Positions 15,061 through 21,793 are shown, counted from the first letter of the stretch. The stretch is 64,000 nucleotides of DNA from Ignavibacteriota bacterium (GCA_963835935.1 CAWIHK010000005.1:186467-250466); one strand, 5' to 3'. Notes: generated by a model from the letters alone, not told the origin. Translations and numbers: made by a program.

Positions 15061-15134
15061 GACCCCGTAGCTCAACTGGATAGAGCAACAGCCTTCTAAG
15101 CTGTAGGTTACGCGTTCGATTCGCGTCGGGGTCA
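15061..15134 (+). tRNA. tRNA-Arg(UCU)
   Basis: GACCCCG/CGGGGTC acceptor stem, ACAGC-CTTCTAA-GCTGT anticodon arm, GTTCGATT T-loop; CCA not encoded. Confidence 0.95.
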
Positions 15135-15220
15135 CAAGAGTTTGAAGAAAAAAAGTAAAAGTAAAAATTAGAAGATGTGAGAAGGTTTTTCATTTCTTTT
15201 TAATTTTTCCTTTTTACTTG

Positions 15221-15252
15221 TTCAACACGGTGACCATAGTTCAGTTGGTTAG
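15221..15252 (+). repeat. Duplicate of tRNA-His leader and 5' end (31/32 identical to 15363-15394)
   Basis: TTCAACAC/T-GGTGACCATAGTTCAGTTGGTTAG present at both positions. Confidence 0.9.
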
Positions 15253-15370
15253 TCCCATTCCGACTGAACTTCGTGATCCACCAAACGAAGTTCATAGTCG
15301 GAATGAGGATCCGCCGAAGGCGGAAACGCCTGCTACGATGCTTTACGAAAGCATTATTCGGATTCAACAT

Positions 15371-15445
15371 GGTGACCATAGTTCAGTTGGTTAGAACGCC
15401 AGATTGTGGCTCTGGAGGTCGAGGGTTCGACTCCCTCTGGTCACC
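15371..15445 (+). tRNA. tRNA-His(GUG)
   Basis: 8-bp acceptor stem with G-1:C73, CCAGA-TTGTGGC-TCTGG anticodon arm. Confidence 0.95.
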
Positions 15446-15494
15446 CAAGAGAATGCAGATTTAAGATTTAAGATTGAAGATTTGAGATTGAAGG

Positions 15495-15865
15495 GTGGAG
15501 AAACGCCATAATAAGGCCGAGGATCTTAAATCGAGAACAAAAAAGTTTGCACTCTCAATCATTGGAGTGTCAGAAAATTTACAGAAGAGTACTTCTTCCG
15601 AGATTCTGAAAAAACAATTAATTCGTTCCGGAACATCCGTCGGAGCGAATTATCGGTCAGCATGCCGGGCAAAGTCTCGTGCGGACTTTGCAGCAAAGAT
15701 ACGAATCGTGCTTGAAGAAGCCGATGAGACCAATATTGGTTGGAGTTGCTCTTTGAATTACATTTGATTGAAGAAAAAACTTTCATGGAGTTACACAAAG
15801 AAACGGATGAATTAATCTCAATTTTTGTGTCATCTGCCAAGACTGCTTCGAGGATAGAAAAATAA
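15495..15865 (+). pseudogene. Four-helix-bundle protein (TIGR02436/IVP-like), 1-nt frameshift
   Basis: KQLIRSGTSVGANYRSACRAKSRADF...EEADET; adding one base near 15730 restores QYWLELL...ELISIFVSSAKT to TAA 15865. Confidence 0.85.
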
Positions 15866-15902
15866 TATTCACCATTCTTCAATCTGCATTCTTCATTTTC
15901 TA

Positions 15903-15975
15903 GTCCCCATTGTCTAGTGGCCTAGGACATCGCCCTTTCACGGCGGTAACACGAGTTCAAATCTCGTTGGGGACA
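15903..15975 (+). tRNA. tRNA-Glu(UUC)
   Basis: GTCCCCA/TGGGGAC acceptor stem, CTTTCAC anticodon loop, GTTCAAAT T-loop. Confidence 0.95.
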
Positions 15976-16019
15976 CAAGAGAATTTAGAATTAAGATTAC
16001 AGAATGAAGAATGTTTTAG

Positions 16020-16051
16020 AAAAGCCGGAGATCGAAGATTTCTGGCTTTTT
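16020..16051 (+). terminator. Intrinsic terminator after tRNA cluster
   Basis: AAAAGCCGGAGA...TTTCTGGCTTTTT hairpin plus T run. Confidence 0.7.
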
Positions 16052-16316
16052 CATTGTTTGTTTATTGCTTCGATGCGTTTCGTCGCTCATCAATATTTAT
16101 AATCTTCTATCTGGAATCTTCATTTTTTCGATTTCCTTGAAAAAATGTGTAGTTAAAAAAAACTCTTGCTGTATTAAAGAAAAATTTCACTGTATTATCC
16201 AAAATTTGTCATCAGAAAAAGTGTGCGACAATTTGTAACATGCCCTTTATTTATACTTGCGCATTCATCTTTGGGAATCTGGGAATCCATGCCTTTGGCA
16301 CATCCCTTCGGGAGAA

Positions 16317-16573
16317 GTCCCGCCTTGGAGCAATTTAAACAGAGGCGGGACGGTATCTTTATAGAAATCGCAAGATGAAAAAACAAAGCTCCATCTCTCA
16401 TCACCATCGAATAGCGATGGAGCGATATATCTATGTAATCCATTGAAAAACAACTGAGTATCGCTCCGTCGTATGTGACACCACAGTTCGAGACGGAGCT
16501 TTAGCATTTTGATTTCTTATGTTTTCTACGAGGATCACGCTCCACCACTTATACACGGCTGATTTGGTGGAGC
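16317..16573. repeat. Array of four stem-loop units (8-bp covarying stems, 19-21 nt unique loops, 36-39 nt unique spacers)
   Basis: Stems GTCCCGCC/GGCGGGAC, GCTCCATC/GATGGAGC, GCTCCGTC/GACGGAGC, GCTCCACC/GGTGGAGC starting at 16317, 16388, 16463, 16539. Confidence 0.8.
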
Positions 16574-16799
16574 GTTATTCAGTTCCATCTGACAGAGTAA
16601 TCACATTTTTGTCGCAGACCAAACGACAAGAGATTGCTTATTTTTAAAAAGGATGAATTTTAATAACAAACTTGGTATCAATTTTGATAGATGAGTGCCT
16701 GAAGGTGACCTACGTCACATGTATCTAATTATCACTTGACAATAATTGAAATATTTCACATACTCTTTGTGCGCTTATTAAGATTGTATGTCTCTATAA

Positions 16800-16890
16800 T
16801 AATATAGATAGAGACTAAATTGTAATATAGATAGAGACTAAATTGTAATATAGATAGAGACTAAATTGTAATATAGATAGAGACTAAATT
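16800..16890. repeat. Tandem repeat, 23 bp x ~4
   Basis: TAATATAGATAGAGACTAAATTG three times plus a fourth copy lacking the last base. Confidence 0.95.
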
Positions 16891-17392: not shown

Positions 17393-20300
17393 ATGCTAAA
17401 AACACGTTTCGGTTTTCAAAAAGTCGGATGGATGCCTCTTCTATTGAGCGTCTTGCTTATAGGAGCGTTAGGTATTTCAACCGCGTACGCTGCTGGAGCT
17501 GGGGTGACCTTTTTAAAAGGTGACACCACGTACATTCCGCTACAGCATACTAAGACCACCTACGGCGATTCAGCGAAGTATAAACTCGCCAATATAACAG
17601 TGGTGGAAACTGTTGCGGGAAATTTGATAGCAACCGCGACTGATTCTGTGCAAATTAAACCGCCAGCTAATTATACTTTCGTGACGGATTCTGTTGTGAC
17701 AATAACAGCGTCTCCGGTTGGTGGTTTAAAAATTGATACCACAGGTTTTGCTGCATTAGGTATCGTTCAAACTAGCCAGACTACGGTAAAATTAAAAATG
17801 AAAAATTATATTTCCTTCATGATTAGTACTGTATCATCTGGCACAGCCGATACACTTACGATTAGTGGTTTGTATCTCCAGTCGGCACAGACGGCGGCAA
17901 ATTTTGATTCTACAACGGCTGCATACATCGCGTTCTCGCAAAAGGGTATAGGCGCGAACTCAGCTAATCTCAGCAAACTTATTGCTCTTCCGGGTGCGTA
18001 TAATAAGATAGCTATGATACAAGATCCAGCAGGTGAGTATTACGCTGGAGAAAATGATATAACAGCTATCATTAAATTAGAAGATGCGGCTGGGAATGCA
18101 GTAGTGAGTGGTAGTGTGATACCCAACGTAAAAGCAGTTCTTAATGGAACAAGCACGCAAGGAAACGGCACTTTATCGGGAACTACAACTGTTACGAGAA
18201 GTGATCGCAAGGACTCTGTTACCTATACAGCGATGGCATATACCAAAGCGGAGAACATTCAATTAGTTTTCACTGCTCCTGGAAATACGCTTACATCAGG
18301 TGAACTCCATATTTACCCAGGTGATCCGGCAAACATTTCAGTTTCGTTGTTGAGCGGGAAAGACACGTTGACAGTAGATCAGACAGTGTCTTATACGTTA
18401 ACAGTTACTGACCAATATTATAACCCGGTTCTAGATGATTGGATAATTGACGCTAATGAAGCGACACCTCATGGTGCAGTAATAAGTTTAAGTGGTGAGA
18501 CAGGTCAGTCCCCATTTACAAGTCTCAGTGGTCAACTTAGCGCTACGTTTGCTCCAAGTAAGTACTTTGTGGGACTTGACACAATTGTATTTACATCAAG
18601 TAGTTATGATGGTAAAGTAACAAAATCTCATAATTTAAAATCACCCACAATAAAAATATCGGGTGCAACACAGTTACAACCCGTTTTGATTACACACGGT
18701 GCAATTGGCGGAATAATAGTTGATTATTCAAACGATGTTAACAACGCTACTGTAACAGAAGCTATAGGTGCAGGAAAGCAGATTTATGCTCGTGCTTTCT
18801 TACGCGACACTTATGGAAACCCGATAGATTTTACAAGTCCAGCGGCAAGTACCTTCACAATCTCAGGCAAGCTTGGTAAAAGCACTTCCCTTGGCACACC
18901 TGGATTGACAAACGCTATTGTAGAATCGGGATATCCTAACACAGTAAAGACTGCTGTAGGTATTGCGATTCCTTATACGATCTCTACAAATGTTAGAGCA
19001 GAAGTAAAGGAAAATAATATTAAATCGAACGGAAAAGCTCCGAAGGTTCTCACTTCAACTCTATTACCCGACAGTATCCTTGTCGCTTCTAATGGTTACA
19101 ATCTGACCCTAACAATTCAGAATCGAAGCGATATTCCTGCAAAACTGAGTGCAACTGCGACCACTGGCGACAGTTCGCTTGTTGCTTCATTGTATGCAAC
19201 CAGCTTGACAGTAACTGATACTGTTTGGGATCAATACGGCAATCTATGCAACGATCCCGGCGCAGTCAAAGTATCTCCTCTTGAAAGCGCTTATGATATA
19301 TTTGCGTCAACAAGCGGATTTGCTAAGTTCGTAAGAGCTAAGGATACTACTGCTGCCGATACGCTGCTTCCCAGCGCTGGAGTAGTTACCAGAACCGTAT
19401 CGCCCAGCACAGTGTCTGGTGCCGACAATGTTGTTTTAGTTGCCGCATCAAGTTCATCACTTACAAAATCAACGCCTATTTGGGTAACCCCTGCGGCATT
19501 CGCGAAGATTGCTATTACACCTAAAAAAGATACAACAGCAATTGCCGGACAGACCGTAACGTTTAACGTTGAAAAACAGGATCAGTATGGCAACCACATC
19601 GACTTAGGTTTGGCTGGCGGTAATTTACGCGGACATCTTCCTTCGACAACCAAACCGGATTCTGCTAGTGTAGCTGCAGATTCTGCTGCGCTGTCTGCAG
19701 ATACAGTGTCGACTGGCAGTAACCGTGGCGGTGTTGTGACTATTTCAAAGAGAGCCACTGCCGGCAAAGCCGGAGTTGCAAGCGTTGGCGGTACACTTGT
19801 AGCAACGTTCCCATTCACAACTTATGTTGCCGGTGCAGATACGCAGAAAGTATATGCGACCATTGGTGCATATAGTGATACGGCTTTAGTAAGATCTGCA
19901 GCGACAGGCTCTTTGAGTAGCTTTAAGATAGAAATTGCGGCTGCTGATTCAATCCATCATGCAGGTGACGTTGTTACTATTACAGTTACTGCGCAAGATG
20001 CAGCGAGCAACCGTATTTATACGTATATTAGCGGCGGCCAGAAACTTGTTTTGAACCACACAGGCGTCAAAGCTATTACTACTGCGGATTCAACTTTCTA
20101 CTTCACTTACATCAGAAATCACAAGGGCGTAGTTAAAGCCGGTGATACCCTGACAGTAAATGGTAACAGTATTCCCGACACTGTGTTTGTACAGGGTCAG
20201 GCAAAGTTCTCCTTGCACAAGTTCACTGCAGAAGATAGCATCAACACGGTGAGTATTAGCACTGTCGGCGGTGCATTCAAAGCTACTAGCGCTAGTGGCG

Positions 20301-20935
20301 TAAAGTTCCTGCCGTTGTCAGCAATTGGACAGTATGGCAAGTGGGCAGTTACCATTAATACAGACTCAGTAACCACGAAGAGCCCGAACGTAAGCTTCAC
20401 AGTTATACCGCGTGATAAATATTATAACGTGACCACTAAGGACACGGTTATTGTCAATATCACGACAAGCTTGTCAAGTGGAATACTGAATTTTGGTTCG
20501 AACCCGAAAGTAATCGTTGGCCCGACAACAATCACCGGTCCTTTGACAAATGCTAAGGGCAATCCTACACTACAGGTTTCGGTGTTTACCAGTGATAACT
20601 CACATCTCTATGCTGCGAGCGCGATTAAGTCACTCGTAGTAGTTGGTGTAGAAAATCCACAAGAGTTGCCGAAATCCTTTGCATTGAATCAGAACTATCC
20701 TAACCCGTTCAATCCAAGTACAGTTATCAGTTACGATTTGCCGGTTAAAGGCGATGTAACTCTGAAGATTTATGATGTTCTTGGAAGAGAAGTAGCTACA
20801 TTAGTGAACGAGAAGCAGAACGCTGGTTCTTACAAAGTGACCTTCAATGCTAGCAAGTTGTCAAGCGGTGTATACTTCTATCAGTTACAAGCTGGCAGCT
20901 TCAGCAGCGTTAAGAAATTGATCTTGATGAAATAA
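17393..20935 (+). CDS. Large secreted Ig-repeat surface protein with T9SS C-terminal sorting domain
   Basis: Signal peptide; Thr/Ser/Ala/Val-rich; recurrent D-x-Y-G-N-like motifs; C-terminal QNYPNPFNPSTVISY...KKLILMK. Confidence 0.85.
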   Translation: MLKTRFGFQKVGWMPLLLSVLLIGALGISTAYAAGAGVTFLKGDTTYIPLQHTKTTYGDSAKYKLANITVVETVAGNLIATATDSVQIKPPANYTFVTDSVVTITASPVGGLKIDTTGFAALGIVQTSQTTVKLKMKNYISFMISTVSSGTADTLTISGLYLQSAQTAANFDSTTAAYIAFSQKGIGANSANLSKLIALPGAYNKIAMIQDPAGEYYAGENDITAIIKLEDAAGNAVVSGSVIPNVKAVLNGTSTQGNGTLSGTTTVTRSDRKDSVTYTAMAYTKAENIQLVFTAPGNTLTSGELHIYPGDPANISVSLLSGKDTLTVDQTVSYTLTVTDQYYNPVLDDWIIDANEATPHGAVISLSGETGQSPFTSLSGQLSATFAPSKYFVGLDTIVFTSSSYDGKVTKSHNLKSPTIKISGATQLQPVLITHGAIGGIIVDYSNDVNNATVTEAIGAGKQIYARAFLRDTYGNPIDFTSPAASTFTISGKLGKSTSLGTPGLTNAIVESGYPNTVKTAVGIAIPYTISTNVRAEVKENNIKSNGKAPKVLTSTLLPDSILVASNGYNLTLTIQNRSDIPAKLSATATTGDSSLVASLYATSLTVTDTVWDQYGNLCNDPGAVKVSPLESAYDIFASTSGFAKFVRAKDTTAADTLLPSAGVVTRTVSPSTVSGADNVVLVAASSSSLTKSTPIWVTPAAFAKIAITPKKDTTAIAGQTVTFNVEKQDQYGNHIDLGLAGGNLRGHLPSTTKPDSASVAADSAALSADTVSTGSNRGGVVTISKRATAGKAGVASVGGTLVATFPFTTYVAGADTQKVYATIGAYSDTALVRSAATGSLSSFKIEIAAADSIHHAGDVVTITVTAQDAASNRIYTYISGGQKLVLNHTGVKAITTADSTFYFTYIRNHKGVVKAGDTLTVNGNSIPDTVFVQGQAKFSLHKFTAEDSINTVSISTVGGAFKATSASGVKFLPLSAIGQYGKWAVTINTDSVTTKSPNVSFTVIPRDKYYNVTTKDTVIVNITTSLSSGILNFGSNPKVIVGPTTITGPLTNAKGNPTLQVSVFTSDNSHLYAASAIKSLVVVGVENPQELPKSFALNQNYPNPFNPSTVISYDLPVKGDVTLKIYDVLGREVATLVNEKQNAGSYKVTFNASKLSSGVYFYQLQAGSFSSVKKLILMK

Positions 20936-21163: not shown

Positions 21164-21793
21164 AGGCCGTAGGCCTGAAATCTTGGTAGAAAAAAAAGAG
21201 CCATTTAAACTTGAGTTCCGTCAGGAACGGAATATAGAGAAGAGCCTTTATGCCAAATACATACACTCAAATCCACATACAGATTGTTTTTACCGTCCAA
21301 GGACGGAACAATCTCCTACCAACCAAACATCGTGACGAAATTGAAAAATATGTCACAGCTATCGTCCAGAACGATGGTCATAAACTGCTTGCGATCTATT
21401 GCATGCGGGATCATGTTCATGTGATGATCGGACTGCGACCTCAACAAGCACTATCGGATCTGGTCAGAGACATCAAAGCGAATTCCTCCCGTTTCATTCG
21501 CGAATCGGGGATCAAATCGGGGAAATTCTCTTGGCAGGAGGGATATGGTGCCTTCTCTTATTCAATCGATGATATTGAAAACGTAATTCATTATATCCGC
21601 AATCAGGAATATCATCATAAGAAAAAAACGTTTCGGGAAGAATATCTCAATCTATTAAAAGAGTTCAACATCAGATACGATGATAAATATATATTTGAAT
21701 GGATCGATGAAGAGTAGATCAGATTCCACCCCAAACGGGGTTCTAAATTTATTTCAATTCATCATTCTACCGAGATTCCATCCCTAACGGGAT
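21164..21793 (+). mobile_element. IS200-like/REP-associated Y1 transposase module with inverted REP-like flanks
   Basis: Left hairpins AGGCC-GTA-GGCCT-GAAAT and GTTCC-GTCA-GGAAC-GGAAT; right (reverse strand) ACCCC-GTTT-GGGGT-GGAAT and ATCCC-GTTA-GGGAT-GGAAT; TTGGTAGAA/TTCTACCGA in both flanks. Confidence 0.7.
21250..21717 (+). CDS. tnpA: IS200/IS605-family HUH (Y1) transposase
   Basis: DHVH HUH motif, WQEGYGAFS, catalytic Tyr in HYIRNQ. Confidence 0.92.
   Translation: MPNTYTQIHIQIVFTVQGRNNLLPTKHRDEIEKYVTAIVQNDGHKLLAIYCMRDHVHVMIGLRPQQALSDLVRDIKANSSRFIRESGIKSGKFSWQEGYGAFSYSIDDIENVIHYIRNQEYHHKKKTFREEYLNLLKEFNIRYDDKYIFEWIDEE

Follow-up and report, generated by a model that had tools for sequence, protein, structure and literature searches.

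The four hairpins at positions 16317-16573 of an Ignavibacteriota genome segment (the window, meaning the whole stretch of 64,000 nucleotides that was analysed) most probably constitute a BIME-like cluster of REP-type DNA hairpins which, judged from sequence, a Y1/HUH transposase would recognise in single-stranded form. The same hairpin foot and 3' tail, carried on units with a short loop, are found beside Y1 homologues in other genomes and in 230 copies in Desulfonema, and we therefore read the window array as a BIME-like REP cluster whose loops are about 20 nt longer. A CRISPR-like or guide-RNA reading of the locus would thereby be replaced by one in which its units are substrates of a Y1/HUH enzyme.

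Architecture of the hairpin array

The window (C5:186467-250466) belongs to a genome of 6 contigs (C1 to C6; 4.06 Mb, 41% GC), and the array sits in a 1.3-kb non-coding gap with a tRNA cluster upstream and a type IX secretion system (T9SS) cargo gene downstream. The features of this region, in window coordinates, are the following.

15061-15976, + strand: tRNA-Arg, tRNA-His and tRNA-Glu, upstream of the array
16019-16051: intrinsic terminator of good quality, after tRNA-Glu
16317..16351, + strand: u1, putative A-type long-loop REP hairpin, GTCCCGCCT / 17-nt loop / AGGCGGGAC
16352..16372, + strand: u1 tail GGTATCTTTATAGAAATCGCA, the conserved 3' tail GRNATMTTTATAGAAA of the family (from alignment, nhmmer and motif census)
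16388..16423, + strand: u2, B-type hairpin, GCTCCATC / 20-nt loop / GATGGAGC
16424..16462, no strand assigned: central spacer between u2 (+) and u3 (-), which lie tail to tail, and common to both
16463..16499, - strand: u3, B'-type hairpin, GCTCCGTC / 21-nt loop / GACGGAGC
16518..16538, - strand: u4 tail, read on the minus strand as GTGATCCTCGTAGAAAACATA (from pairwise alignment and direct reading)
16539..16573, - strand: u4, A'-type hairpin, GCTCCACC / 19-nt loop / GGTGGAGC
17393-20935: gene, downstream of the array, for a protein of 1180 aa that carries a C-terminal sorting domain of the type IX secretion system

The four hairpins are present as a first-pass annotation of this DNA had described them, with stems of at least 8 bp and a period of 71-76 nt. 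Their start-to-start spacing is 71, 75 and 76 nt, the stems measure 8-11 bp (that of u4 extends to 11 bp over 16537-16575) and the loops 17-21 nt. Folded as DNA, each unit is more stable than its dinucleotide shuffles, with z = -4.4 for u1, -2.6 for u2, -3.5 for u3 and -5.9 for u4, and the 311-nt region as a whole gives z about -5 on either strand. Stem differences among u1-u4 are compensated in the 3' arm, including those at stem positions 6-7, where the compensatory change noted in the first-pass annotation is confirmed; the foot of u2 reads GCTCC/GGAGC instead of GTCCC/GGGAC by way of two compensated changes, as seen in pair counts and in the unit alignment. The central spacer starts with GATAT and finishes with GTATC, and its ends are able to pair with the adjoining stems (GGAGCGATA / TATCGCTCC).

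Two features of the earlier description had to be revised. The loops and spacers had been taken to be all different, but the first spacer, 3' of u1, bears the family-wide conserved tail GGTATCTTTATAGAAA, with ATAG at positions 10-13 counted from the hairpin foot, and the u1 loop is a diverged homologue whose core, GCAATTT, recurs in loops at C1:1416906, C6:345985 and C6:346058. The units had also been implied to share one orientation. Neither u3 nor u4 was detected in the genome search with our covariance model of the unit (R1), so that u3 is to be regarded as diverged, and an nhmmer profile of the dimer missed both hairpins in either orientation; their orientation and assignment were settled by pairwise inverted-repeat alignment against shuffles. 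Local alignment of u1-u2 with the reverse complement of u4-u3 scores 47, compared with 19.2 +/- 3.4 for the shuffles (z = 8, 0/300), and spans ~100 nt with the spacer included, whereas alignment with the right half in direct orientation reaches a z of 2.1 only. On the minus strand, u4 is then followed by GTGATCCTCGTAGAAAAC, with GTAGAAAA retained at the family position. From the inverted-repeat alignment, together with the GTAGAAAA kept in the u4 tail, it follows that the locus has the structure A B B' A', in which a module of two hairpins is present twice, convergent and tail to tail, u1-u2 being forward and u4-u3 reverse.

A long-loop repeat family in the genome

A genome-wide scan found six GCTCCNNN..NNNGGAGC hairpins in the whole 4.06-Mb genome, three of them at the window locus; since there are only six such hairpins, we rejected a GCTCC-type REP of the ordinary kind, dispersed as single copies. 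The wider family became visible once the feet were relaxed to GTCCC/ATCCC. BLAST of the region against its own genome returned several further loci matching the u1 hairpin and the spacer that follows it, and these are arrays of GTCCCSS...SSGGGAC hairpins with ~20-nt loops, each then followed by G.TATCTTTATAGAAA. A profile of the two-hairpin module (~145 nt, nhmmer) matches more than 12 loci, the E-values running from 3e-37 to 1e-8 and being 1e-22 for the copy in the window. The covariance model R1 detects 43 units at E < 1e-3, among them u1 (52.4 bits, E = 7e-11) and u2 (38.6 bits, E = 1e-6), and these are distributed over 12 loci, all of them intergenic, with the units always in clusters. The first-pass annotation had associated many dispersed single copies with an ordinary REP family; dispersal is indeed what we observe, with ~40 copies at 12 loci, but the copies are clustered and never single. 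For a REP family this is few, more than 100 copies being typical.

The long-loop consensus reads A-GTCCCSS, a loop of 17-28 nt, SSGGGAC, and then GRNATMTTTATAGAAA; 26 oriented units align as ..AGA-GTCCCSC-(loop)-GSGGGAC-GRNATMTTTATAGAAA. Across these 26 units, 93% of the cells of the 8-pair helix are paired and double-sided changes occur in six of the eight pairs, giving a covariation score that 0/500 shuffles reach and that collapses in slid controls. Stem variants include GTCCC/GGGAC, GCTCC/GGAGC and ATCCC/GGGAT, and pair 6 may be G-C or C-G. The 3' tail is conserved in the pattern G-R-N-AT-M-TTT-RTAG-AAA, while the 5' flank is merely A(G)A. A GTAG (or CGTC) tetranucleotide directly at the stem end is absent from these units; the tag is an ATAG or GTAG located 9 nt beyond the foot, in the 3' tail. 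We considered whether loop and tail might form a pseudoknot (e.g. loop TTTTCTA with tail TAGAAAA) and rejected this candidate, since duplex energies for 23 units gave a mean z of -0.05 against shuffled loops.

The module is a direct dimer, A then B, with a 72-nt period, and inverted pairs of dimers occur at 5/12 loci. Those forming quads outside the window are as follows.

C4:11428-11722: tail-to-tail quad, as in the window
C2:309993-310292: tail-to-tail quad, as in the window
C5:106815-107091: head-to-head quad
C6:345967-346278: head-to-head quad

The context of the copies and their orientation relative to neighbouring genes vary among the 12 loci. Several lie directly 3' of stop codons, between convergent or tandem genes (e.g. 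C5:48720-51485, C6:337342-339429). Near-identical modules in reverse orientation were also observed at C5:51494-51644, C5:463139-463289 and C6:339418-339569, each ~100 nt upstream of a member of a group of paralogous 230-250 aa proteins with the T9SS C-terminal tail NYPNPFNPST..., which suggests that these three modules were carried in a segmental duplication, or that they mark these genes.

Among the genomes searched, the long-loop element is confined to this lineage. None of 60 genomes of the order and none of 300 other genomes (144 genera) of the phylum contains it, this genome alone carrying it among 301, and two pattern scans of metagenome contigs found no long-loop form; no empty insertion site emerged for comparison with the occupied loci.

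Y1 transposase genes and their flanking hairpins

The genome encodes five or six Y1 proteins, 25-45% identical to each other. Each gene is single-copy and each has different flanking hairpins. The genes and associated repeats are listed below.

21215..21241, + strand: short-loop relative upstream of the window Y1 gene, GTTCC-gtca-GGAAC then GGAATATAGAGAA
21250..21717, + strand: IS200-like Y1 (HUH) transposase gene, 155 aa (Pfam Y1_Tnp, 1.3e-24)
21715..21793, - strand: two short-loop inverted copies downstream of the window Y1 gene, in the same arrangement as at homologous loci
C6:391578-393249: largest long-loop array, six 179-nt A-B repeats around a Y1 gene
C6:391962-392384: Y1 gene, 141 aa, inside the largest long-loop array
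C1:1801078-1801473: further diverged Y1 gene
C2:488544-488957: further diverged Y1 gene
C6:395265-395685: further diverged Y1 gene, broken
C1:1533421-1533807: further diverged Y1 gene

The window Y1 protein and that of the C6 array are 45% identical (BLASTP). In the C6 array two repeat copies lie upstream of the Y1 gene and four downstream, with two additional inverted units right after the stop codon, so that the units bracketing the gene are in forward orientation on its upstream side and in reverse orientation immediately behind it. The long-loop family probably has its 'home' REPtron in this array.

The hairpins that flank the window Y1 gene are short-loop versions of the long-loop unit design. 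The upstream copy has the position and orientation seen at 46/80 of the homologous loci described below. Downstream, the hairpin at 21728-21741 reads ACCCC-gttt-GGGGT followed by GGAATCTGATCTA, and that at 21780-21793 reads ATCCC-gtta-GGGAT followed by GGAATCTCGGTAGAATGA (a tail also written GGAATCTCGGTAGAA). A motif census indicates that the short-loop form is rare in this genome (~4 copies) and that the long-loop form predominates. The latter differs by 2-4 extra covarying pairs and a loop of 17-28 nt, which together add ~22 nt to the unit.

The four further Y1 genes have small hairpins of their own, for example CCACGGCC-taaa-GGCCGTGG and ACCACCC-tgaa-GGGGTGG followed by AATAAAATAG. Since each diverged Y1 gene is accompanied by its own hairpins, several Y1/hairpin systems coexist in this one genome.

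By its motifs (DHVH, WQ and YIRNQEYHH, the signature of subclass 1.2), the window Y1 protein fits subclass 1.2 of the TnpA_Y1 proteins. It scores 70.1 bits with the NCBIfam IS200 equivalog model (cut-off 55) as against 40 bits with REP_Tyr_transpos (cut-off 80), and for the C6 protein the corresponding scores are 89.7 and 33.6 bits. The nearest solved structures are those of IS200/IS605 TnpA proteins, e.g. that of ISDra2 (PDB 2XM3), and not that of E. coli TnpA-REP.

Short-loop relatives in other genomes

Relatives of the C6 Y1 protein were found at at least 508 loci (one genome per species, identity at most 51%), and we examined the best 80. In these best 80 of at least 508 loci, R1 gives 70 matches at E <=1, always to 37-nt units in which 3-4 nt replace 25 central model positions: AGYCCC-NNN-GGGRCG-NNATATTTATAGAAA. 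An apparent '20-nt loop' match in one related locus was rejected as an artefact of tandem repeats consisting of the tail only. With a fuzzy motif search, GGGRYG-NN-AT-N-TTTATAGAAA was located after a hairpin with a 3-4 nt loop at 46/80 homologous Y1 loci, which come from other phyla, the loop measuring 3 nt in 89 copies and 4 nt in 24.

The placement of these copies relative to the Y1 gene is regular. Of the tail copies at the 80 loci, 64 are on the + strand ahead of the gene and 37 on the - strand behind it. On the upstream side the nearest copy ends 47-56 nt short of the start codon, and on the downstream side the nearest one lies 81-85 nt past the stop. Upstream and inverted downstream copies are both present within 300 nt at 17/80 loci, where the two agree at 17.1/21 positions within a locus, compared with 14.2/21 between loci (0/5000 permutations).

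The same foot and tail with a short loop occur at Y1 homologues in Bacteroidota, Ignavibacteria and Desulfonema. The chromosome of Desulfonema magnum (NZ_CP061800.1) contains 230 dispersed copies of CCCNNNGGGRYGNNATNTTTRTAGAA (CCCGTAGGGGCGGCATATTTGTAGCA type), with 0 for the reversed control pattern; many of the copies lie in tandem arrays of 50-52 nt period with at least 10 units, and head-to-head pairs also occur. In a Dyadobacter genome the short-loop repeat is present 23 times. In its numbers and arrangement, the short-loop repeat behaves as a REP family with its REPtron does. Growth of the loop by about 20 nt would turn the 50-nt period of these relatives into the 72-76 nt period of the long-loop arrays. 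Desulfonema magnum is a deltaproteobacterium, and its Y1 gene resembles those of Bacteroidota.

The first-pass annotation had also suggested that the window hairpins might be sites for recombination of single-stranded DNA, or derivatives of REP hairpins with expanded loops that are related to the hairpin at the Y1 gene near 21.2 kb. Both suggestions are supported by our results, namely by the inverted units that bracket a Y1 gene and by the short-loop relatives.

Proposed mechanism

The unit that we envisage comprises a 5-bp foot, 2-4 further covarying pairs, a loop of 17-28 nt and the conserved 3' tail, and the propagating unit would be the direct A-B dimer of hairpins spaced 72 nt apart. In IS608 and ISDra2, hairpin recognition is coupled to a cleavage site at a fixed distance from the hairpin foot. 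By analogy, the Y1 enzyme encoded at C6:391962-392384 would bind single-stranded DNA, such as the lagging-strand template, at the foot of the hairpin and would cleave near the tail RTAG, which at ~9 nt beyond the foot is the obvious candidate for a fixed-distance site; in this way it could copy or move units. Insertion beside an existing tail would generate head-to-tail arrays of constant period, ~50 nt for short-loop and ~72-76 nt for long-loop units. We propose that the stems are kept because the enzyme needs the hairpin, and that the loops drift because the enzyme does not read them. This model draws on work on the TnpA proteins of IS608 and ISDra2 and on E. coli TnpA-REP (PMC3333891, PMC3479197, PMC8266576).

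Relation to known systems

The repeats share many properties with REP and BIME elements and with REPtrons, in which a RAYT or TnpA-REP gene has inverted REPs on either side (Nunvar 2010, PMC2817692; Ton-Hoang 2012, PMC3333891; Di Nocera 2013, PMC3733652). Both are short intergenic hairpins with GC-rich stems that occur singly, as dimers or in regular clusters, and the clusters described here have mixed orientations, like the head-to-tail, head-to-head and tail-to-tail dimer types of REPs and BIMEs. In both, compensated changes preserve stem pairing, the families are lineage-specific, a genome may hold several Y1 genes, each with its own hairpin, and a REPtron-like arrangement places a single-copy Y1/HUH gene between inverted repeat copies. 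There are also clear differences. The GTAG is not at the 5' foot, and instead there is a 3' tail of ~16 nt in which RTAG follows the foot at a distance of about 9 nt; the protein is a member of class 1 (IS200-like, subclass 1.2) and not of class 2, TnpA-REP; the copies number about 40; and the loops are 17-28 nt long, where most REPs have 2-5 nt. A few GTAG families are reported to have large loops, of 9-27 nt (PMC3733652).

REPINs, in which two inverted REPs make up a larger hairpin that RAYTs mobilise (Bertels & Rainey 2011, PMC3116915), are similar in that the repeated unit is composite, with inverted module pairs at 5/12 of the loci here, and in that the family and a single-copy Y1 gene are both vertically confined to the same lineage. 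In contrast to REPINs, the basic module consists of two unlike hairpins in direct orientation and is not an inverted doublet, each hairpin folds alone, and the long-range palindrome is imperfect.

The Y1 proteins agree with the published description of TnpA_Y1 subclass 1.2 (Quentin et al., 2018, PMC6006769) in length (~148-155 aa), in their FCB-group taxa, in the HuH motif (D/E)H[VI]H, the WQ and the Y---Q--HH signature (YIRNQEYHH, YILNQDFHH), and in a low copy number with paralogues ~36-45% identical. That subclass is listed there as being without REPs and without IS ends, whereas we observe flanking hairpin-plus-tail repeats at 46/80 homologous loci and 230 dispersed copies in one genome. 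We found no later paper on subclass 1.2 in a literature search that was incomplete, and the repeat may be described elsewhere.

Among insertion sequences, members of the IS200/IS605 family (IS608, ISDra2; PDB 2XM3) encode the Y1 enzymes nearest in sequence, and their cleavage at a fixed distance would fit an RTAG ~9 nt 3' of the foot. The ends of such elements, however, share a strand, and the left end is unlike the right, whereas the copies described here are inverted and the gene is not multi-copy. An autonomous IS is expected to leave several near-identical transposase copies with their ends, and here each Y1 gene is found once.

Palindromic units at regular spacing are reminiscent of CRISPR and attC arrays. 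In contrast to a CRISPR array, no cas gene is present among the ORFs near the array, stems vary from unit to unit, the variable part is enclosed by the hairpin, a conserved tail occupies part of the spacers and the orientation is mixed; in contrast to integron attC sites, there are no integrase, no gene cassettes and no RYYYAAC/GTTRRRY ends.

Alternative explanations

We considered how a processed multi-unit non-coding RNA, in which a single transcript is processed into its hairpins and the variable loops of these serve as guides or as antisense regulators, would account for the locus. Stable, covarying hairpins would likewise be explained by RNA structure, the array does lie in a non-coding gap between a tRNA cluster and a T9SS cargo gene, and REPs elsewhere act at the RNA level (PMC3733652). 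However, units lie in opposite orientations inside the array, and at other loci they occur in either orientation to the flanking genes, and the loops are diverged homologues and not unrelated inserts. When the four loops and three spacers were compared with the genome (blastn-short), only chance matches of at most 13 nt were obtained, family tails aside, and the array had no match among 50,697 phage records (blastn). The element is not conserved in the 60 genomes of the order or the 300 of the phylum; Rfam gave these repeats no match but only noise at gathering or E-value thresholds, whether in the window, in the C6 array or at two related loci; and no convincing sigma-70-type promoter or terminator bounds the array. 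The guide- or antisense-like RNA that the first-pass annotation had put forward is thus very unlikely, given the mixed orientation, the want of targets in the genome and in phages, the absence from relatives and the Rfam result.

A role for the host, with the cluster exapted as an insulator or terminator, as a stabiliser of mRNA 3' ends or as a site where nucleoid proteins bind, at its place between tRNA operon and T9SS cargo gene, is compatible with a REP origin and not an alternative to it. As the explanation of the locus it seems unlikely to us. A proper intrinsic terminator already follows tRNA-Glu, the hairpins have no U-tracts and have loops of 17-21 nt, and context and orientation vary among the 12 loci; these points weigh against such a role, even though REP and BIME elements have roles of this kind in enterobacteria (PMC2817692, PMC3733652), several copies directly follow stop codons, as at the loci on C5 and C6 named above, and three paralogous copies precede the paralogous small T9SS-tail proteins. 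We regard as highly improbable a third account, in which the hairpins are fossil left and right ends, no longer active, of an IS200-like insertion sequence that was formerly autonomous, or else are MITEs descended from it. In its favour, u3 and u4 are strongly diverged, and the Y1 proteins do score as IS200-family members closest to the TnpA structures of the ISDra2 and IS608 type. But the Y1 genes are single-copy and 25-45% identical, where active insertion sequences are multi-copy and identical (PMC6006769, Table 1); the flanking hairpins are inverted, where IS200/IS605 ends are on one strand; and the compensated stem changes argue for continued selection or copying.

Implications for subclass 1.2 Y1 proteins

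The reading of the window array as a cluster of REP-type substrates of a Y1 enzyme leads to a more general suggestion, which we offer tentatively. Subclass 1.2 Y1 proteins may head a separate REP system spread over several phyla (Bacteroidota, Ignavibacteriota, Desulfobacterota and others), its signature being a hairpin with a 5-bp GC foot and three or four loop nucleotides, followed by a 3' ATNTTTRTAGAA tail, and this could represent a second, independent domestication of an IS200-type transposase beside that of the classical RAYTs. In the present lineage the hairpin would have gained an extra helix segment and a freely evolving loop of ~20 nt, with the stem kept. In a bolder version of this suggestion, the enlarged loop would be a tolerated cargo position and the units a natural scaffold for short variable sequences.

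What we consider new, to a moderate degree, is the long-loop variant of the hairpin-plus-tail repeat and the repeat family tied to subclass 1.2 proteins. A widespread and poorly characterised clade, whose members are annotated as 'IS200/IS605 family transposase', is thereby linked to a recognisable repeat. If the suggestion is true, the REP/RAYT idea reaches the FCB group via an independent protein lineage, annotators obtain a simple motif with which to mask such repeats, and the natural series of loops from 3 nt to 28 nt lends itself to asking which parts of a hairpin these enzymes read.

Other features near the array and in the window

Just upstream of u1, positions 16272-16287 and 16297-16313 hold a direct duplication, TGGGAATC-TGGGAATC, and a small hairpin, CCCTTCGGG. 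A sigma-54 promoter proposed by eye in this segment (TGGCAC-N5-TTCG at 16298-16313) was rejected, as its -12 element departs from TTGC and the other copies are not preceded by anything like it. Between the array and the gene for the 1180-aa T9SS cargo protein, at 16800-16890 and ~500 nt upstream of that gene, there are four perfect 23-nt tandem repeats (TAATATAGATAGAGACTAAATTG) with a degenerate fifth copy ahead of them. These repeats, which occur nowhere else in the genome, may be iteron-like or may bind a regulator. Further along the window, the segment 30131-32075 on the minus strand is a group II intron, with Rfam matches to domains 1-4 and to the catalytic domain.
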